A program made the position numbers and the translations under genes. Of a stretch of DNA of 24,000 nucleotides, positions 14,909-24,000 are shown piece after piece. Numbering within the stretch: position 1 is the stretch's first letter; each line of letters begins with the position of its first letter. The stretch is from an uncultured archaeon (lineage in GTDB: Archaea > Asgardarchaeota > Lokiarchaeia > Sigyniarchaeales > SOKP01), in assembly GCA_964632315.1 (NCBI GenBank), contig CAZWEM010000041.1, forward strand, positions 14,578-38,577, read 5' to 3'. Below the pieces are notes generated by a model. It was given only the letters and a program-made list of their open reading frames with translations. It had not been told where the DNA came from and made no database searches.

Positions 14909-16333
14909 ATGGTAAAATCTGAAATTTTAATGGTTGGCCTTCCAAATATCCCGAAAATAATTCCCGGTGATAATCTTGCACAAATTATTAGGGATTCCTT
15001 AAAACAGAAAAAATTAACGTTAGAGAATGGAGATATCCTGGTAATTGCACAAAGCATCGTATCAAAAAGTATCGGAAGTATTATTAATTTAAATGATGTC
15101 AAAGTTGGAGAGCGAGCCATGGATATTTACAGAAATATGGAACCCTTAATTTTAAGAGAAGGAATAACAAAAAAAACTCCACAATTAGTCCAATTAATCC
15201 TAGACGAATCTAAAGAAATTTTAAAAGCAGAACATGTTCTTATTGTTGAAACCAATTATGGATTTATTTGTGCAAATGCTGGAATTGACAAATCAAATGT
15301 CGAAGGAAGTGAAAATGTAACATTATTACCGAAATATCCAGATGAGGAAGCTAAAAAAATAAGAAATGAATTAAAGAAGCTAACAGGAAAAAATGTAGCG
15401 GTTATTATTTCTGATTCATTTGGAAGACCTTTTCGAAGAGGAGCTGTAGGAGTTGCAGTTGGCATTTCTGGAATATCTGCTCTCTTAGATAAGAGAGGTG
15501 AAAAAGACTTGTATGGAAAGATGCTTCAGAGTACTATAGTTGGACAAGTTGATAATCTAACTTCTGCAGCACAATTAATAATGGGTGAGGCGAACGAAGG
15601 ACTTCCCGTCATATTGATCAGAGGATACAAATTCGATTTTGATGAGAAAGCTTCAATTAAAGAAATTTTTAGACCCGAAGAAACTGACTTATTTAGGATG
15701 ATTTCTGAAAAAGATTTATTTTTTAAAGTACTAAAATCTCGAAGAAGTTATAAACTTCGATTCTCTTCAAAAATACCTGAAAGAGAGATTATAAGGGATT
15801 GTATAGCATTAGCTCAATGGGCACCCAGCGCACATAATGCTCAACATTGGCGATATGTTATATTAGATAAAAGTTCAATTCGCGAGAGGTTAATTTTGGA
15901 AATGAATTCGAAACTGAGAGAAGATTTATCTCGAGATGGAAGATCAGAAGAATTTATAGCAGAAAAAATTAGAAAAACAAAAAGAAATTTTCTCGAAGCA
16001 CCCTATTTGGTTATTTTATGTTTGGATGAAACAGAATTAGAATCATATTCTGACAGGGAGAGGACAAAAAACGAATTAATCTTAGGAATTCAGAGTATCG
16101 GAGCATCGGCTAGTTATTTCTTGTTAGCGCTTGAAATAAATTCACTTGCTGCATGTTGGTATTCTGCTCCGTTATTTGCACAAGAAGTTGTAAAGAAAAA
16201 CTTAAACTTGCCAAAATCATTTAATCCGATGGCTTTTTTCACAGTGGGATATGCACTAGAAAAAGCAAAGCCAACTACTAGAAAAAGCATAGAGGAGGTT
16301 ATTTATAAAACAGGTGAAGAGGATATTGAATGA
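14909..16333 (+). CDS. cofE: F420 gamma-glutamyl ligase fused to a nitroreductase-family domain (FbiB-type architecture)
   Basis: N-terminal CofE motifs: PGDNLAQII, GDILVIAQSIVSKS, NAGIDKSNV, DSFGRPFRRG. The C-terminal roughly 200 aa carry the nitroreductase signature SRRSYKLRF...WAPSAHNAQHWRYVIL. Confidence 0.85.
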   Translation: MVKSEILMVGLPNIPKIIPGDNLAQIIRDSLKQKKLTLENGDILVIAQSIVSKSIGSIINLNDVKVGERAMDIYRNMEPLILREGITKKTPQLVQLILDESKEILKAEHVLIVETNYGFICANAGIDKSNVEGSENVTLLPKYPDEEAKKIRNELKKLTGKNVAVIISDSFGRPFRRGAVGVAVGISGISALLDKRGEKDLYGKMLQSTIVGQVDNLTSAAQLIMGEANEGLPVILIRGYKFDFDEKASIKEIFRPEETDLFRMISEKDLFFKVLKSRRSYKLRFSSKIPEREIIRDCIALAQWAPSAHNAQHWRYVILDKSSIRERLILEMNSKLREDLSRDGRSEEFIAEKIRKTKRNFLEAPYLVILCLDETELESYSDRERTKNELILGIQSIGASASYFLLALEINSLAACWYSAPLFAQEVVKKNLNLPKSFNPMAFFTVGYALEKAKPTTRKSIEEVIYKTGEEDIE

Positions 16334-17255
16334 GAATAGGATCGTTGTATTAGCGGGTGGCGTCGGAGCAGCAAAATTTATTGATGGTTTAATCAGAGTA
16401 ATTGATCCAGAGAGGTTAGTGATAATAGTAAACACTGGAGACGATCTCGATCTCTTTGGTCTAAAAATTTGTCCTGACATTGATATTATTACATACACGC
16501 TTGCGAATGTAATTGATCGAGATAAAGGTTGGGGATTTAGTAATGAAACCTTTAATTCTTTAAAATTATTACAAAAATATTATGACATTGGATGGTTTAA
16601 TCTTGGTGATAAGGATTTAGCAACTCATATCTTCCGAACTGATCTCTTTAATCAAGGATTAAGTAAATCTGAAATTACATCTATAATTTGTAGGAAATTA
16701 GGAATAAAAGCTCGAGTAATACCTATGTGCAACGAATCAGTTATTACTAAAATTAAAACATCTTCAGAAGAAATGCATTTTGAAGAGTATTACATAAAGT
16801 ATCGGTGTGAACCGACTATTCTAGATTTCTTTTTTGATGGTATAGATAAGGCAAATCCAGTTAAAGGTGTGATTACCGAATTAAAAGAAGCAGAAAAAAT
16901 CATTATTAGCCCATCTAATCCATTTGTATCAATTGGAACCATCCTTGGGGTACAAGGAATAAAAGATGTTTTAAAACAAAAAAGGAAAAATGTTTATGGA
17001 ATTAGCCCGATCGTAGAGGGGAAAGCTATAAAGGGACCAGCCGATAAGTTAATGCAATGTTTGGGATATGAAGTATCTTGTAAAACTGTAGCCGAAATCT
17101 ATAGAGAAATTTTGGCCAATTTCATAATCGATAAGAGAGATTCTTTTTTAAAACCTGACATTGAACAATTAGGTTTGAATTGCTATTGTTTTGATACAAT
17201 AATGGATAATTTAGAAAAAAAAAAAGCTCTAGCAGAATTTGTGATGAATCTTTAA
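16314..17255 (+). CDS. cofD: 2-phospho-L-lactate (or EPPG) transferase CofD/FbiA
   Basis: 313 aa with VVLAGGVGAAKF, VNTGDD and ISPSNPFVSIGTIL motifs. GTG start at 16314 overlaps cofE by 20 nt. An alternative TTG at 16326 is also possible. Confidence 0.88.
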   Translation: MKRILNENRIVVLAGGVGAAKFIDGLIRVIDPERLVIIVNTGDDLDLFGLKICPDIDIITYTLANVIDRDKGWGFSNETFNSLKLLQKYYDIGWFNLGDKDLATHIFRTDLFNQGLSKSEITSIICRKLGIKARVIPMCNESVITKIKTSSEEMHFEEYYIKYRCEPTILDFFFDGIDKANPVKGVITELKEAEKIIISPSNPFVSIGTILGVQGIKDVLKQKRKNVYGISPIVEGKAIKGPADKLMQCLGYEVSCKTVAEIYREILANFIIDKRDSFLKPDIEQLGLNCYCFDTIMDNLEKKKALAEFVMNL

Positions 17256-18688
17256 GTTTCCATCGTTTGAGTTTCCACAGTAATCTCTTGTTCTAACGGT
17301 TCATCCTTTTTAACATAATCTCCCACAGATGCTAATATCTCTTTAATCCTACCCTCTTGTTGTAATCTAATGATAAGACTACGATGCTTAATATATGAAA
17401 TAATTTTAGATATCACAGGGAAAACCAACATTATAGGAATTAATAATATTATTACTACTTCTGGCGAGTACATAGCCACACTTTCTGAAATTGCTGGAGG
17501 CATGTTGAAAACATACACAAAAAACCAATGTGGATGGATTATCACAAAACTTATTAAAATTAAAATTACTAATCGAGAAATAAAATTGACTATAGTTGAT
17601 AACGCAAGGACTTTTGCTTTTGGGGTAGAAGATCTCGCAGTTAAGGTGTCACGAGCTTCCGGATCTTCCCTAAACAGTCTTTCTATATATTTTCCAAGTC
17701 TCCTTGTCTTTGATGCTGCTGTGACTAATTTCTTTTCTTCCTCTTCAAGCTTTCTCTTTTCAATCATTTCTTTTACATATGAAAATCTTTCTTCGAGTTT
17801 TAAAAGAAATTTATTCACACTTGTTTTTTCTTCAATTTGAAGTTCTTCTTTTCTTTTTTTAGCTTCTTCCCTTATTTTATCAATATTAGCTACAACAAAG
17901 TGAGATTCACTTTCTAAAATCCCGAGTTGTGCTTCCAATCGATCGCTCCTCTGTAAAGAGGGCTTTGTCACTGTATATGTATAATTTATTTGAAATGATA
18001 ATTCTAAATAAACGTAAGAGATGATTGCAAGAAGAATAACGGGACTTGCTAAAAATTGAAAAAAATCATCAATGGGTATATAAGAAAAGGCTGGATCTAA
18101 TGGGTTAGGGATGTTATCTAAGTATGCGTGGGGAATATATAAAAGATCCATCATATTTCTAAATCCAAAGACCATTAAAGGTACAACTATCATCGCTATT
18201 AAAGATCCAATAGCTATCATATCATATTTTGGATTATTTTGTAAAAATGATCGAATTAGATATATAACTGATACAATAATTAAAATTTGAAAAGAAAACA
18301 AATATAAATCGCCCGTGAAAACCGATATTTCAGCCATTATTAGATCAGGTATCTCTGTTAATAAAGGAACATTCCCATTCGGAAAAGTAAACCATAACCT
18401 AACGAAATTTCTAATTAATTGGTCTAAAAAATTGAACATAAAATCGGGATTGATAAAAAACATAAATGAAGTAAGTTGAATGAAAGCAATCGCAATCAAG
18501 TAAATTATTCCAAAGAAAGCATAGGTGAGAATGTTTCTCACTCCTTCAAAAAATGCTATAATTACCAAATCTCCTTCAGAGGTTGTCATAACTTGATCAA
18601 TGTGAAAAACTGAAAAAAATAGGAATAAAATCCACACATACACAAGAATTTTTATGATTTTTAGACCATAAAAATAATATCTTACCAT
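17252..18688 (-). CDS. cysteine-free polytopic membrane protein with a central charged coiled-coil segment; last gene of the MoxR module
   Basis: 478 aa. About 7 N-terminal TM helices are followed by roughly 110 aa rich in E/K/R (IREEAKKRKEELQIEEK...KRKLEEEEKK), then 2-3 more TM helices and a charged tail. There are no Cys residues at all. The start lies 2 nt after the DUF58 stop. Confidence 0.6.
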   Translation of the reverse strand: MVRYYFYGLKIIKILVYVWILFLFFSVFHIDQVMTTSEGDLVIIAFFEGVRNILTYAFFGIIYLIAIAFIQLTSFMFFINPDFMFNFLDQLIRNFVRLWFTFPNGNVPLLTEIPDLIMAEISVFTGDLYLFSFQILIIVSVIYLIRSFLQNNPKYDMIAIGSLIAMIVVPLMVFGFRNMMDLLYIPHAYLDNIPNPLDPAFSYIPIDDFFQFLASPVILLAIISYVYLELSFQINYTYTVTKPSLQRSDRLEAQLGILESESHFVVANIDKIREEAKKRKEELQIEEKTSVNKFLLKLEERFSYVKEMIEKRKLEEEEKKLVTAASKTRRLGKYIERLFREDPEARDTLTARSSTPKAKVLALSTIVNFISRLVILILISFVIIHPHWFFVYVFNMPPAISESVAMYSPEVVIILLIPIMLVFPVISKIISYIKHRSLIIRLQQEGRIKEILASVGDYVKKDEPLEQEITVETQTMET

Positions 18689-18690
18689 TT

Positions 18691-20031
18691 TTAATAAGCA
18701 CTTCCCTTTTTTTTAGCTTCTACATAGGTTTTTAATACACTTGACATCATATCGTCAGGACCAACAGTAATTAAATTTATTCCAAGATTTCGGAGCTCTC
18801 GGCGAATTTTGATAATATGTTCCATCATTTCTTCACTTATTGCTTCCGCTAATGCTTTATCTGTCGTAGATAAGTCGATTTCATGAATTTCAAACCAAGG
18901 ACTAAATGGATTTATGATTATAATAGAATGATTGAAAGGAACTAGTTTTTTAACTGCTTGGGCTATCTCTTTAACATTTCCCTCCAAATCAGAGATTATG
19001 AAAATTAAACTGCGCTTTTGAAAGCGCCTATTAAAATGATCTATTGCCTCAACCATTCTGTTTTTTCCCTGAGGTTTAATTCTGGCAACAAAATCTAATA
19101 CTCGGTAGAAATGATCCTCTCCTTTACCTGGCTTCAAAAAATTAAAATTTTTTCTATCTGAAAATGTAAACACTCCGACATTATCTCTTCGAGTGAGTGC
19201 TACCTTTGTAAGCAACATACAAGCTCGAATTGCATATTCAAATTTTGTGTTTTCAATCGCACCCCCTGCCATACTATTTGAGGAATCAACTAAAATCATT
19301 ATGGAAATGTCTCTTTCACTTTCAAATTCCCTAACAATTAGTTGTTGTGAACGAGCACTAGCTTTCCAATCAATTAATCTGAATTGATCTCCAAATACAT
19401 ATTTTCTCATCCCATAAAATTCGGATCCTAATCCTTTTTGTTTGGATCTTTCCAAACCATAGTTTAACTGGAGTGATCTTTTAGAACCCAAAATCTCAAT
19501 TCTTTTAATATCTTCATAAGGAGGATATATTAAGATATCAGAGACACTATCAGGAATGATCCTTTCCACGGAGTTAAATCCGAGCCGATCTTTTATAGTA
19601 ACTGATATTGGGCCCAATGGATATTCACCTCTAACTTTTGGTTCTAAAATGTAAGAGAATTTAACTATTGCTTTGGGGCCAATTCTGGTTGAAATAAAAT
19701 TTTCACCGAGCACTAGTTTAAATAATTGTGGATTAAAGTAGTCTCTGATTTCTAGGAATTCAAAACTTTTTTTACCAGTGTTTTCAATTATCACTTTAAT
19801 GTGAACAAAATCATCCTTGAAAACTTTGTTCTTTTCCAACTCTCTATGAACTCTGAGTTCTTCTACATTCATTTGCCAATAAAAAATCGGTAAACTAATA
19901 ATTGTGCTGAATAAAAATAATACTGCGATGTAAATAAAAAAATAATTCACAAACGCAAATCCTGCAGTTAGAAAGAAAACTGAAAATAATATTAGTGTAC
20001 GTCCTTTTCCACCTAACACTTTATTCACCAC
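18691..20031 (-). CDS. DUF58-family protein (vWA-like, MIDAS DxSxS) with N-terminal membrane hairpin
   Basis: 446 aa. Two N-terminal TM helices, a beta-rich region, then the DUF58 signature FRLIDWKASARSQQLIVREFESERDISIMILVDSSNSM. It lies directly downstream of MoxR, the canonical pairing. Confidence 0.82.
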   Translation of the reverse strand: MVNKVLGGKGRTLILFSVFFLTAGFAFVNYFFIYIAVLFLFSTIISLPIFYWQMNVEELRVHRELEKNKVFKDDFVHIKVIIENTGKKSFEFLEIRDYFNPQLFKLVLGENFISTRIGPKAIVKFSYILEPKVRGEYPLGPISVTIKDRLGFNSVERIIPDSVSDILIYPPYEDIKRIEILGSKRSLQLNYGLERSKQKGLGSEFYGMRKYVFGDQFRLIDWKASARSQQLIVREFESERDISIMILVDSSNSMAGGAIENTKFEYAIRACMLLTKVALTRRDNVGVFTFSDRKNFNFLKPGKGEDHFYRVLDFVARIKPQGKNRMVEAIDHFNRRFQKRSLIFIISDLEGNVKEIAQAVKKLVPFNHSIIIINPFSPWFEIHEIDLSTTDKALAEAISEEMMEHIIKIRRELRNLGINLITVGPDDMMSSVLKTYVEAKKKGSAY

Positions 20032-20059
20032 TTTTTATTTCTTTTTTTAAAAAAATTGG

Positions 20060-21040
20060 TTATATTGGTACGGGTATTTCTTCTACTATCGATTTAAGAA
20101 CTGATTTTGTATCTAACCCTTCAAGCTCACTTTCAGCTTTCAACATTATTCTATGATTCAATGCGGGTATTATTAGTGCTCTTACATCATCAGGGGTCAC
20201 GTATGTACGTCCTAATATTGCAGCCCTTGCTTTAGCACACTTCATCAGAGTAAGTGAGGCTCTTGGGCCGCATCCTAATGCGATTTGAGGGTGATTTCGG
20301 GTTTTTATGATGATATCTCTGACATATTTAAGAATTCTTTCATCAATATATACCATATTCATTACTTTTTGAGCAGCCAAAAGTTCTTCTGCGCTAGTAA
20401 TTACATCAACTGAAGGAGCTTCTCCAGAGATCTGTCTTCTCATTATCTCAACCTCTTCATCCTGTTCTGGATAGTCTAACCATAACTTAAATAAGAACCT
20501 GTCAACTTGGGCCTCTGGTAATGGATACGTTCCTTCCATTTCGACTGGATTTTCTGTGGCGATGACAATAAATGGTTTTTCCAACGCTAAAGTTTGGCCC
20601 TCGATCGTTACCTGTCTTTCCGCCATTGCTTCAAGTAAAGCTGCTTGAGTTTTAGGTGCACTCCTATTGATTTCATCTGCTAACACTACATTAGCAAAAA
20701 TTGGACCTTTCTGGAGGACAAATTGACCTTCGTTTTGATCAAAGATCTTTGTACCAGTTATATCGGCTGGTAATAAATCAGGAGTAAACTGAACTCGTCT
20801 AAATGAGATGCCAAGCGTTTTAGCAAAAGTCTTTGCCATAACAGTCTTGCCAAGGCCCGGCACTCCTTCCAAAAGCACGTGGCCATTAACTAAAAGCGCT
20901 ATAAATAATTGTTGTAACGTTTCTCCATACCCAACGATGACCCTACTCACTTCACTGAGAACCTCCTGAGCAATTTCACGAATAGGGGACACATCCAATT
21001 CTTCACGATCATAATATTTTGCTTTATTTGGGGCTTCCAT
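20060..21040 (-). CDS. moxR: MoxR-family AAA+ ATPase
   Basis: 326 aa with Walker A GVPGLGKT, Walker B VVLADEINRSAPKTQAALLEAMAERQVT, sensor-1 IATENP, and the typical MoxR C-terminal lid (GCGPRASLTLMKCAKARAAILGRTYVTPDDV). Confidence 0.93.
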   Translation of the reverse strand: MEAPNKAKYYDREELDVSPIREIAQEVLSEVSRVIVGYGETLQQLFIALLVNGHVLLEGVPGLGKTVMAKTFAKTLGISFRRVQFTPDLLPADITGTKIFDQNEGQFVLQKGPIFANVVLADEINRSAPKTQAALLEAMAERQVTIEGQTLALEKPFIVIATENPVEMEGTYPLPEAQVDRFLFKLWLDYPEQDEEVEIMRRQISGEAPSVDVITSAEELLAAQKVMNMVYIDERILKYVRDIIIKTRNHPQIALGCGPRASLTLMKCAKARAAILGRTYVTPDDVRALIIPALNHRIMLKAESELEGLDTKSVLKSIVEEIPVPI

Positions 21041-21105
21041 TTTTTTTTCACATCTTTATTTGTAATTTTTGTTATTTTTATTGATTTTATAATTATATTT
21101 GGTTA

Positions 21106-22842
21106 TCATAAATTATTAACAACCCATTCCATCTCAAAGAATAGGCTTTCAAAATCTTCTTCATTTTTTACCTTACTCTTTCCTTCTTTTATTGAAATCA
21201 TCCTATCCATAAATTTAGAGATTCTCTTCATCTTTAATTTATTGATTCTCGTCTCTTTTGAAATAACCATATCAATTACATTCTTTGTGGTTATTTTTTT
21301 ACCTCTAAGTAAAGTATTTAATTTTCTCTCCAATCTTCTATATAACAGAAGCAAGGCTTTTCCATACTTTGCTTTCTCCCTATACCATCCTATTTTTTCT
21401 GCGAAGAAAGATGATGTTCTAAACTTTTCTTTTTCTTCTATTATTTCTTGTTTGGCTGCTTTCTTCTTTTCTTTTTTGCCTCCTTTTTTAGGAAGATACT
21501 TTCTCAAGGTATAAATTGCTATAACAGGATAAATCCAAGCTGTTATCGGATTAGTGGAAAGATGTATGATATATTGAATAAAGAAACCATAAATTCCAGC
21601 AGACGTCAAATCTCTTGAATATTCGGGTCGAATATGAGCTTCATCAAATGCAATAATCCAATTGTCCTTAGGCTCTCCATATGTTAGCCAATCCACTATA
21701 TTAATTGCAAATTGTTTATTATCATACCCAGGCCATTCTATTAATTCATTATCAAACAAGCTAGCATCAGCAGAAACAAACACTCTTCCATTTCCTGTAT
21801 CTTTTGCCATAAAAACCGCCTGAGAATAAATACCTAAAGGCCATTTAGTTGGAAATCCTGGTAGAGATGCCGCTATCATGCTGATATCTACATTATCATC
21901 CTCATATCGATAAACATGATCATCATTTTTATCAACATAACTATATTCTGAGGAAGTTCCTACGACATCCCATCCAAAATAAGATAAAAACGGCCCTCCA
22001 ACAACAGCAGAAGATTGTGATAAGATTAAATTGCTAATCCCAGTAGTTGTTGGATGACCTGGAAATGAATTAATTATTGGAAAATCTGTTCTGGTGTCAT
22101 AAGAAAGATTATCTCTTAAAATTCCATTTGGAAAAATAGTGACTGGGATTTTTCCTCTGATATCAGGGTCCAAAGCACCAGCTAAGAATATTTCCCATAA
22201 CAACCAACTTGAACTGCCGTGATCGTGACATATTAAAATCGAATTTTTACTCTCATTGCTAAAAAAGTCGATAAAATAAGGGATTTCAAAGACAGGATTA
22301 TAGAATTGATTTGGTCCAAAAAGAATTAATAAAATAGATTTATCCAATCTTTCAGTAGCACTAAGACTAGATTGTATTGACATAACTTCATATCCTTGGG
22401 AGGTGAGCGTATCACGGAATTTTGATCCTCCATTCCAATCAGAATTGTAAATAGAAAAGTTTTGATCATTAAGTCCCTGATCAAAAATAGGTCCGAATAA
22501 GGGGATAAAAGCAAATACAAAAATTACTAAGAAAAGAGCTTCTTTGTATATAGAGCCAATTTTAACTTTTTTTCTTGATTGAATCTCTCTTGATTTTTGA
22601 ACTGTGATTTTCCTTATGAATATAATTAATCCTAAACCCAAAAATATTGCTGAAATATAACAAACAAATGGTAAATATGTAATGTATATCGGGAGAAATG
22701 AGCCTGGATTATCTTTTTGAAAGATATCTATAAAATTAGTTAGAAATACACCATAAAAAATGAAAAATATTGTCAAGAAGGAAATAATGATTCCTTTTGA
22801 CAAATTCACATTTTTTCCGGAAGATAATCCTAAATTTGACAT
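21106..22842 (-). CDS. membrane protein with a large extracytoplasmic DUF4350/GldG-like domain and a basic cytoplasmic tail
   Basis: 578 aa. Three to four N-terminal TM helices precede a roughly 300-aa soluble domain (ILLILFGPNQ...ILICHDHGSS, RVFVSADASLFDNE). A further TM follows, then a K-rich tail (KKGGKKEKKKAAK) and a helical C-terminus. The position upstream of MoxR matches the known DUF4350 context. The family assignment is by eye. Confidence 0.55.
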   Translation of the reverse strand: MSNLGLSSGKNVNLSKGIIISFLTIFFIFYGVFLTNFIDIFQKDNPGSFLPIYITYLPFVCYISAIFLGLGLIIFIRKITVQKSREIQSRKKVKIGSIYKEALFLVIFVFAFIPLFGPIFDQGLNDQNFSIYNSDWNGGSKFRDTLTSQGYEVMSIQSSLSATERLDKSILLILFGPNQFYNPVFEIPYFIDFFSNESKNSILICHDHGSSSWLLWEIFLAGALDPDIRGKIPVTIFPNGILRDNLSYDTRTDFPIINSFPGHPTTTGISNLILSQSSAVVGGPFLSYFGWDVVGTSSEYSYVDKNDDHVYRYEDDNVDISMIAASLPGFPTKWPLGIYSQAVFMAKDTGNGRVFVSADASLFDNELIEWPGYDNKQFAINIVDWLTYGEPKDNWIIAFDEAHIRPEYSRDLTSAGIYGFFIQYIIHLSTNPITAWIYPVIAIYTLRKYLPKKGGKKEKKKAAKQEIIEEKEKFRTSSFFAEKIGWYREKAKYGKALLLLYRRLERKLNTLLRGKKITTKNVIDMVISKETRINKLKMKRISKFMDRMISIKEGKSKVKNEEDFESLFFEMEWVVNNL

Positions 22843-22879
22843 TATTCCTCAATAATTTACATATATTCTTTATTTTACT

Positions 22880-23257
22880 TTAAAAACTAACTGTTGGAAT
22901 AGATTTTCCAGTTACCTCATTGTATAATGTAGAAAATAATTGAACTGTGTAATTAATTTCTTTACTAGTTGGTTCAATACCTCCATAAATTATATCTTCG
23001 ATCTTCTTTATAAACGGGTAGACGGACTCTGGTTTCTGATCCAATTCATTCACGCATGTTATAGCATATTCCCGTATCGTTTGATATGCCAAGCGTGGTT
23101 TTTTGAATTTCAATGTGATTATATCGTTGTAGACCAAATATATGTAAGCTATTGCCTCTTTAGCTCTATTAGATTCTACTAAAACCTTCACATTGTCAAA
23201 TTTCTGTCGTATATCTACTTCTGGTTCAATTACTTTTTTCTTTCTTGCCATATTCAT
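22880..23257 (-). CDS. small soluble DUF4129-like helical protein
   Basis: 125 aa: EAIAYIYLVYNDII...YQTIREYAITCV...SVYPFIKKIEDIIYGG...QLFSTLYNEVTG. This helical pattern matches DUF4129 (C-terminal domain found with transglutaminase/MoxR clusters). It is a clear paralogue of the C-terminus of the next gene. Confidence 0.55.
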   Translation of the reverse strand: MNMARKKKVIEPEVDIRQKFDNVKVLVESNRAKEAIAYIYLVYNDIITLKFKKPRLAYQTIREYAITCVNELDQKPESVYPFIKKIEDIIYGGIEPTSKEINYTVQLFSTLYNEVTGKSIPTVSF

Positions 23258-23328
23258 TACCTTTTATCTATTTTTTAACTCTTTATTTATTAATTTTTTT
23301 TGACTTTAAATTTGTTTTTACATTTTGA

Positions 23329-24000
23329 TTAAAAATTTACCACAAAATTGTAACCAGTCAATTCATGATATATTGGTGAAAATAATTCAATTGTATTGTA
23401 AAATTCTTTATCGGTGATTTGAAATGGTTTAGCATAAATTATTTCCTCAACTTTTTGTATGAAAGGATATATTGAAGTTGGAGTTAAATTGAGTTGAGTA
23501 ACCGAAATTATCGCAAAATCACGAATGGTTTCGGTGTCTTTTCTTATTCGACCATATTTTGCTTGTATTAAATCCATATAAATTGCATTAAATAAATATG
23601 ATAAAGATTCTTCCAATCGGCCAGAATCCTTCAGAATTTTTAAGTTTAAGATTCTATCCTCTAATGGCAGGTGGACGACTCTAGATTCTTTTTCACTCTT
23701 CTTATATCGATAAAATCCATATATAGCTAATCCAACAATACTCCCAACTATAATTGGGATAAATATGGTGAAAAAATCCATAAAAGGAACCTCAGTAGGA
23801 GTAGGAGGTGGCGCAGATTCTACCATTATCGAATGACTTGTCGAAAGAACTCCTAAAGGGCCATCCATTTCAATTCGTAATTGGAAATTCCCAGTACCTC
23901 CAGTAAGCTGATATATAAAATCGAAATATCCTCCAGCATCAGTTGCTAGATTAGCAATCACACTTGAATTGTACAAAATCCGAATATTACGATTGTTAAT
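23329..24000 (-). CDS. partial membrane protein: extracytoplasmic beta-sandwich-like region, one TM, cytoplasmic DUF4129-like domain (5' end outside the window)
   Basis: The frame stays open to base 24000 (INNRNIRILYNSS... precedes the TTG that the ORF track used as the start). TDAGGYFDFIYQLTGGTGNFQLRIEMDG resembles carboxypeptidase-regulatory/CARDB-type beta-sandwich repeats. The TM is FFTIFIPIIVGSIVGLAIYGFY. The C-terminal 120 aa are paralogous to ORF 22880-23257. Confidence 0.6.
   Translation of the reverse strand: MNNRNIRILYNSSVIANLATDAGGYFDFIYQLTGGTGNFQLRIEMDGPLGVLSTSHSIMVESAPPPTPTEVPFMDFFTIFIPIIVGSIVGLAIYGFYRYKKSEKESRVVHLPLEDRILNLKILKDSGRLEESLSYLFNAIYMDLIQAKYGRIRKDTETIRDFAIISVTQLNLTPTSIYPFIQKVEEIIYAKPFQITDKEFYNTIELFSPIYHELTGYNFVVNF

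Follow-up and report, generated by a model that had tools for sequence, protein, structure and literature searches.

A seven-gene MoxR-DUF58 membrane module, probably one operon, in a genome of the order Sigyniarchaeales

Related gene neighborhoods

The window analyzed here is a stretch of 24,000 nucleotides (G000:C41:14578-38577, contig CAZWEM010000041.1) from the 4.45 Mb assembly GCA_964632315.1 of an uncultured archaeon of the order Sigyniarchaeales (Asgardarchaeota, Lokiarchaeia), below called the Loki order. The names carried by homologues likewise point to a Lokiarchaeon (Promethearchaeota). It carries, on the minus strand, a gene module built around a MoxR-family AAA+ ATPase and a DUF58 protein, the genes of which we letter A to G in the order of transcription. 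Neighborhoods of MoxR and DUF58 with transglutaminase (TGase), DUF4350 or DUF4129 proteins occur widely, and in at least one bacterium they are essential. We found no Asgard-specific literature on the module.

The closest characterized relative is the PA2875-PA2874-tgpA cluster of Pseudomonas aeruginosa, which is co-transcribed and encodes an active, periplasmic TGase; tgpA is essential (PMC3507681). Like PA2875 (MoxR), PA2874 (DUF58) and tgpA (PA2873), the genes described here form a co-directional cluster encoding MoxR, DUF58 and a membrane protein with a TGase-like domain, here predicted to face outward. TgpA consists of 668-688 amino acids (aa) with six transmembrane (TM) helices (DUF3488) and an active, essential TGase, whereas the Asgard A protein has one N-terminal TM helix and approximately 1000 aa of immunoglobulin (Ig)-like repeats. 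Compared with TgpA, the Asgard protein is here encoded by two separate genes and lacks the catalytic Cys and His, and the module adds C, D and G. In other Asgard archaea the two parts are fused, in the order TM, TGase outside, TM, DUF4129 inside. By its Pfam architecture, we take TgpA to have this same layout.

In archaea, arCOG01314 (DUF4350), MoxR and an Ig/vWA protein have been predicted to form a novel secretion or membrane remodelling system (Makarova, Galperin, Koonin 2015, PMC5898192). Our locus shares with it a membrane-anchored DUF4350/GldG-like protein, MoxR and an Ig-vWA (DUF58) protein, plus Ig-like surface proteins. The published description holds no transglutaminase, DUF4129 or G-like component, and the words 'transglutaminase' and 'DUF58' have 0 occurrences in it. 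The DUF4350 proteins also differ in build: that of the arCOG01314 system carries a signal peptide and a single TM helix at its C-terminus, whereas D starts with three TM helices and ends in a cytoplasmic tail. The Ig-vWA protein is treated there as secreted, whereas F looks cytoplasmic behind a TM hairpin. None of our seven proteins gave a Pfam match to the accessory COG4743/arCOG02884/PF07760 Ig-like 'S-layer' proteins.

The mycobacterial Rv3689-Rv3695 cluster (DUF4350, MoxR, DUF58, SpoIIM-like, RDD) is co-regulated in Mycobacterium chelonae (PMC8191103). As at our locus, DUF4350, MoxR and DUF58 are adjacent and accompanied by polytopic membrane partners. These partners are SpoIIM and RDD, whereas G is neither: we considered that G might be a divergent SpoIIM and rejected this, as PF01944 had no match at the locus at E <= 10, and Pfam is blank for G. 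A giant Ig/TGase-like surface protein is not reported from the mycobacterial cluster.

In the Esr system a TGase retains an Ig-repeat surface protein at the cell surface (PMC13622651). Esr and the bifidobacterial PFNA (PMC8430577) resemble our module in combining MoxR, vWA/DUF58, a TGase-type domain and a large Ig/FN3-repeat surface protein. They differ in that they include Ser/Thr kinases, phosphatases, FHA proteins and beta-propeller sensors, none of which we detected here, and in that the TGase-like domain of our module is predicted to be inactive.

Judged by sequence, the module is best filed as an Asgard-wide form of the known but uncharacterized MoxR-DUF58-TgpA/DUF4350/DUF4129 neighborhood. 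Its distinguishing features are G (so far Asgard-only), the expansion of Ig-like repeats, the fission of the TgpA-like protein in the Loki order and the loss of catalytic residues. As to function we tentatively suggest, stopping short of calling it probable, that the module may be driven by MoxR and vWA to assemble or remodel a surface glycoprotein complex across the membrane, working from the inside out via the DUF4129 domains.

Gene organization

The original prediction described a unit of six co-directional minus-strand genes with gaps of 2-71 nt. All six open reading frames lie exactly where it placed them, with intergenic gaps, from G to B, of 2, 28, 65, 37 and 71 nt. The unit itself is larger and comprises seven genes. 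The 3' part of B is located at 23329-24000, with its 5' end open at the window edge. The contig was read past position 24000, as had been advised. This completed B at 497 aa (L003:6907-8400) and revealed A, a seventh co-directional gene 43 nt upstream of B and outside the window. A encodes 1478 aa on the minus strand at L003:8444-12880, corresponding to 24866-29302 if the window is extended.

The spacer between A and the next gene upstream, which encodes a coiled-coil protein, is 178 nt. It contains T-tracts after the stop codon of the coiled-coil gene, and a TATA-like element approximately 69 nt before the start of A. At the other end, a T11 tract is located downstream of G. The internal gaps are without any T5+ run, the sole exception being a T7 in the E-F gap. 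Based on the T-tracts at the flanks, their near absence internally and the TATA-like element before A, we infer that the seven genes of the membrane module are probably transcribed as one A-to-G operon. It should be noted that scans for bacterial promoters and terminators, the models for which are not applicable to archaea, were at background (77 found vs 71 expected, and 8 vs 7, respectively).

Conservation across Asgard archaea

The gene order A-B-C-D-E-F-G is kept in four families of the host's order. Two Lokiarchaea available in culture, Ca. Lokiarchaeum ossiferum and Ca. Prometheoarchaeum syntrophicum, also have the order-level module. In many other Asgard families A and B are one fused protein (TGase-like domain, Ig repeats, TM, DUF4129) with a TgpA-like layout, followed in the 3' direction by an optional small DUF4129 protein and then D, MoxR, DUF58 and G. 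The expectation that the order would be conserved beyond the MoxR-DUF58 pair thus holds within the host's order and well outside it.

Phyletic counts were made on an even draw of 151 Asgard genomes, 72 of them high-quality. The D family was found in 142 of the 151, including all 72 high-quality genomes, and the G family in 126, including 71 of the 72. Three families, f12, f15 and f18, are without D and without G. In the host genome the module is single-copy. We looked for a paralogous second module and found none; the other DUF4350 protein of the genome stands alone. The module is thereby a concrete gene set to test, being single-copy and present in nearly all good-quality Asgard genomes sampled.

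MoxR and DUF58

Gene E (20060-21040, minus strand) encodes a soluble, cytoplasmic MoxR-family AAA+ ATPase of 326 aa. In Pfam it matches AAA_3 (PF07726) with 219.3 bits against a cutoff of 27, and AAA_lid_2 with 85.2 bits against 22.7. The Walker A motif GVPGLGKT at residue 59 and the Walker B motif VVLADE at residue 118 are both intact. E also scores 33.9 bits on bpMoxR (cutoff 27), but this lies under the far stronger AAA_3 match. Its identity is 85-93% within the genus and 82% to another genus of the same family. The known role of MoxR ATPases is that of chaperones for remodelling and not of motors for translocation.

Gene F (18691-20031, minus strand) encodes a DUF58 protein of 446 aa. A TM hairpin at its N-terminus is followed by an Ig-like domain in the cytoplasm and by a vWA domain, the MIDAS of which is intact. 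The Pfam matches are DUF58 (PF01882; 116.3 bits, cutoff 23.4), VWA_2 (46 bits) and weak BatD/TRAP_beta Ig-like hits. The MIDAS motif DSSNS, at residue 249, conforms to DxSxS. The earlier assignments of E, with intact Walker A and B, and of F, with this MIDAS motif, are thus both upheld. F is the sole DUF58 protein in the genome, so that the module holds the genome's only MoxR-DUF58 pair, together with one of the largest predicted surface glycoproteins.

A TgpA-like protein encoded by two genes

The A protein consists of an N-terminal TM anchor, a TGase-like core at residues 309-427 and a long Ig-like repeat region. The core matches Transglut_core (PF01841) over these residues with 40 bits (cutoff 23). 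Its best PDB match by sequence is TgpA, a weak one (E 0.11). There is no Pfam match in A to the N-terminal multi-TM DUF3488 module, and only one N-terminal TM helix (16-46) is present. A BLAST comparison of A with itself found no internal repeats, which we attribute to the repeats being too diverged. The ectodomain of B weakly resembles the repeat region of A.

In the alignment of the A core with TgpA (6g49), Trp occupies the position of the catalytic Cys and Asn that of the His, whereas the Asp is kept. Among 21 aligned orthologues, all those of the order, and also family f9, are without this Cys and His, and the Cys-His-Asp triad is intact solely in two genomes from two other families (G078 and G046). 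Because the catalytic Cys and His are replaced, the core in this organism is predicted to be a pseudo-enzyme, unable to work as a transglutaminase or as a peptidase through the canonical mechanism. A transglutaminase had been named in the original prediction as an optional neighbor of such clusters. One is indeed encoded upstream, but in this lineage it has lost its catalytic Cys and His. That the lineage keeps the module though the TGase is naturally inactive suggests that the core role of the module may be independent of catalysis.

These replacements bear directly on the proposal that MoxR-vWA-TGL (TGase-like) triads are membrane-proximal ATP-dependent degradation systems (Zhang and Aravind 2012, PMC3495828), in which vWA would recruit the substrate, MoxR unfold it and the TGase-like domain cleave it. 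The triad of proteins is present in our module, and the two Asgard lineages with Cys, His and Asp would fit such a role. The replacement of Cys and His in this genome and in the whole order already disfavors it. Moreover, the TGase-like domain is predicted to be outside and MoxR and vWA inside, so that a direct hand-over of unfolded substrate would not be possible. We regard degradation by this module as very improbable.

DUF4350-like and DUF4129-like proteins

Gene D (21106-22842, minus strand) encodes a protein of 578 aa. Three TM helices at the N-terminus precede a DUF4350/GldG-like (GIFT) domain, which is extracytoplasmic, and after it come a fourth TM helix and a helical, Lys-rich tail in the cytoplasm. 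The DUF4350 label of D fell short at first sight, since the protein scores 29.4 bits on PF14258 against a cutoff of 30.4, 1 bit short, with a weak ABC_transp_aux match beside it. In the genome scan D covers both ends of the DUF4350 profile in two partial matches of 17.3 and 16.1 bits. The label is recovered from the family: all 20 phylum-wide D orthologues match DUF4350 (E <= 0.001, best 1.1e-19), and 11 of the 20 also match ABC_transp_aux (GldG-like). On these grounds D is assigned as a divergent but true DUF4350 member. A sequence search of D against PDB gave no match at E <= 1.

Three of the 20 D orthologues match the GIFT domain of IFT52 (PF23355), which reflects the known 'GIFT' homology of GldG and IFT52. 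A second DUF4350 protein of 670 aa is encoded on another contig of the host genome (G000:C6:31737-33749) and scores 45 bits, above the cutoff. Family hidden Markov models (HMMs) detected neither MoxR nor DUF58 nor any other gene of the module on that contig.

Gene C (22880-23257, minus strand) encodes a soluble, cytoplasmic, DUF4129-like protein of 125 aa. It is paralogous to the C-terminus of B (42% identity, E 4e-23). It has approximately 480 homologues, with 78-100% identity among the matches listed. The AlphaFold2 model of C is a five-helix bundle with a pLDDT of 74.6.

The DUF4129-like label had been given to C and to the first gene of the window, B. With the plain Pfam HMM (PF13559) it finds no backing, as there is no match in the window or in the A and B proteins at E <= 0.1, and none in the whole genome at E <= 10. 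Across the phylum, PF13559 matches the C-termini of proteins of 1200-2300 aa and adjacent proteins of approximately 150 aa, with up to 58 bits. Orthologues of C from the same family score 24.6 and 21.2 bits (cutoff 24.8), and an HMM built from sequences of the Loki order falls on the same residues as PF13559 in the phylum proteins. We used the segments scoring 46-58 bits on PF13559 as genuine DUF4129 in profile comparisons by hhalign. The Loki C family aligned to them with 98.8% probability (E 1.2e-16, 107 columns) and the B tail with 98.7%, and a coiled-coil control gave 0.2%. From these profile alignments we consider the label correct for both C and the B tail. A third DUF4129 copy in the cytoplasmic tail of D was considered and rejected: the hhalign probability was 0.4% with the Loki C family, and with genuine DUF4129 it was 30% over just 34 columns.

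The polytopic protein G

Gene G (17252-18688, minus strand) encodes a polytopic protein of 478 aa with approximately seven TM helices and a basic cytoplasmic coiled coil at residues 235-357. Like C and the truncated B, G has no Pfam or NCBIfam family. An exhaustive HMMER search of 1.84 billion proteins found 107 cluster representatives. The distant members bearing a name are all Asgard (Ranarchaeia, Hodarchaeales), and by these matches the family appears to be restricted to Asgard archaea so far. Its invariant residues, E229, Y236, P243 and R247 among them, are concentrated where TM5 and TM6 end on the cytoplasmic side. G adjoins DUF58 even in genomes with a split module. The AlphaFold2 model of G has a moderate pLDDT of 71.6.

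Several orthologues of G in families f10, f21 and f14 (G046, G103, G126, G136, G115 and G150) show one or two TAG codons in frame within the matched region, which may be flanking stops caught by the match or real interruptions.

With a GldG-like protein and a conserved polytopic protein in hand, the module could also be read as an apparatus dedicated to secreting or exporting large surface proteins along the lines of Makarova, Galperin and Koonin, with D as the GldG-like component, G as the conduit and A and B as cargo. The membership of D in the DUF4350/GldG family and the published prediction (PMC5898192) favor this reading, as do the membrane or extracellular nature of most components and a conserved, polytopic G whose fold has no known match. 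Several features fit it poorly. The TM anchor at the N-terminus of A is of an ordinary kind, and the one hydrophobic stretch near the N-terminus of B also fits insertion by Sec/YidC. As noted above, remodelling, not translocation, is what the MoxR family is generally known for. The G model has no channel-like analogue, and the cytoplasmic position of F differs from that of the secreted Ig-vWA protein of PMC5898192. We find an export apparatus doubtful, and distinctly less credible than surface remodelling.

Topology and evolutionary rates

We read the topology of the seven proteins from hydropathy, charge and counts of N-x-S/T sequons. A would expose an acidic outer part of 1432 residues with 5% K+R and 33 sequons, held by one N-terminal TM helix (16-46) behind a short cytoplasmic N-terminus. 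In B, an acidic Ig-like outer region of 344 aa (4% K+R, 7 sequons) is followed by one TM helix (345-371) and a basic, cytoplasmic DUF4129-like domain. D has an acidic DUF4350 domain outside, held between its three N-terminal TM helices and the fourth (approximately 411-446, below the threshold of the scan and read from the sequence), and its Lys-rich tail in the cytoplasm. C and E have no outer or membrane part and would lie wholly in the cytoplasm. F has only its TM hairpin (10-53) in the membrane and none of its domains outside, and its cytoplasmic Ig and vWA body has 16% K+R and 1 sequon. This would put the vWA partner on the same side of the membrane as MoxR. G has short loops outside, approximately seven TM helices and a basic coiled coil of 123 aa in the cytoplasm.

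The outer parts (A and the ectodomains of B and D) are thus acidic, those of A and B also sequon-rich, and the cytoplasmic parts are basic and sequon-poor. The indicators agree with the earlier view that the module has domains on both faces of the membrane. The accompanying count of five membrane-embedded products out of six has to be corrected to four of the six in the window, or five of seven with A.

Evolutionary rates follow the same division. Mean identity to five or six orthologues in the same family is 86% for MoxR, approximately 83% for the Ig and vWA domains of DUF58, approximately 74% for the DUF4129-like domains, 73% for the coiled coil of G and 68% for the ectodomain of D. It is 43% for the repeat region of A and 40% for the ectodomain of B. 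The inner machinery is conserved (70-86%), whereas the exposed Ig regions diverge fast (40-43%).

Fast evolution of exposed regions against 70-86% in the cytoplasm is what might be expected of a sensor. In an outside-in reading, along the lines proposed for the actinobacterial Esr pathway and for MoxR-vWA ternary conflict systems (Kaur 2020), the Ig-repeat ectodomains of A and B would sense something outside the cell (for example a partner cell, a virus or a surface) and signal via DUF4129 to MoxR and vWA. Esr is a precedent in uniting MoxR, vWA, a TGase and an Ig-repeat surface filament, and the bpMoxR score of E is above its cutoff, though far below AAA_3. However, there is no evident output component: by Pfam the module has no kinase, phosphatase, FHA protein, beta-propeller, effector or transcription factor, and PADLOC adds no beta-propeller sensor, effector or kinase/FHA output gene. 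We also considered a defense system as such and rejected it, since PADLOC gave no defense-family match beyond generic P-loop matches on MoxR. Finally, the module is single-copy, near-universal and syntenic, not patchy and variable. We consider a sensor unlikely, although less so than an export apparatus.

Proposed function

The synteny and the topology on both faces support the original prediction of a conserved, organized, envelope-associated module around MoxR and DUF58. We suggest the following working model for surface remodelling. Three parts would be exposed on the outside: from A, the giant N-anchored glycoprotein with its dead TGase-like core and Ig-like repeats; from B, the Ig-like ectodomain; and from D, the GldG/DUF4350 domain. 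The cytoplasm would hold the hexameric MoxR ATPase, the membrane-tethered F, two DUF4129-like domains (the B tail and the free C), the D tail and the coiled coil of G. In brief, F, as a vWA/MIDAS adaptor held at the membrane with its constant partner G, would recruit the cytoplasmic DUF4129-like domains, and MoxR would spend ATP to remodel them. B and D would relay the remodelling outward by way of their TM helices, and its effect there would be control of assembly, anchoring or turnover of the A/B/D surface complex. In this lineage the TGase-like domain would act as a binding or structural module and not as an enzyme. The ancestral form would be a single TgpA-like fusion (TM, TGase outside, Ig repeats, TM, DUF4129 inside), which in the Loki order was divided between A and B.

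A number of observations weigh against this model. vWA and DUF4129 domains are not known to interact in any system. Fold searches against PDB yielded no analogue hinting at a mechanism, as the model of G had no match (best E 0.64) and that of C nothing significant, with a vague TPR-like helical resemblance only. The topology is inferred from hydropathy, charge and sequon counts, and not from a trained predictor. The two Asgard lineages with an intact triad imply that the ancestral role may have been enzymatic. Lastly, the DUF58-G pair is located away from A-D and from MoxR in three genomes (G030, G034 and G033), and in three further genomes MoxR and DUF58 are split by an insertion of 2-4 kb. 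It follows that the seven genes need not be one obligate complex. From these exceptions to the synteny, the tightest links are F-G, with a 2-nt gap here, and A-B-C-D(-E).

The same exceptions would be expected if the module had no single function, with a MoxR-DUF58 pair beside unrelated surface-protein genes in an order owed to inheritance alone. Against this, the order persists between families in which the proteins have only approximately 20-45% identity (approximately 60-70% for MoxR), and D and G are missing together from the three families named above. The related neighborhoods of Pseudomonas and Mycobacterium are, furthermore, co-transcribed or co-regulated. Chance company of this kind seems to us highly unlikely.

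The surface remodelling model also has a bearing on the Asgard cell envelope. The Lokiarchaeum envelope has no ordered S-layer and carries unidentified complex surface proteins (PMC9834061). It is conceivable, though rather unlikely, that the module is conserved machinery that builds and holds an Asgard surface of this kind. The ectodomains of A, B and D would then be among the 'complex surface proteins' seen by cryo-electron tomography, and MoxR and vWA would adjust the surface from inside via DUF4129 and G. If this is true, the module becomes a candidate regulator of the cell-cell contacts on which models of eukaryogenesis draw.

Spacers and neighboring genes

The 28-nt spacer between MoxR and DUF58 (20032-20059) holds the T7 run followed by TTTAAAAA, and could be an attenuator or an internal promoter. 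It is located at the same place where insertions split the module in other genomes.

The gene directly upstream of A encodes a coiled-coil protein of 281 aa (L003:13059-13904, corresponding to 29481-30326 of the extended window). It is syntenic within the family and may or may not be a member of the module.

At the other end, convergent with the module, the plus strand encodes a CofE-nitroreductase fusion (F420_ligase 252 bits, Nitroreductase 82 bits) and then CofD, together at 14909-17255. The stop codons of G and cofD overlap by 4 nt (17252-17255), so that the T11 tract downstream of G sits inside the cofD coding sequence.

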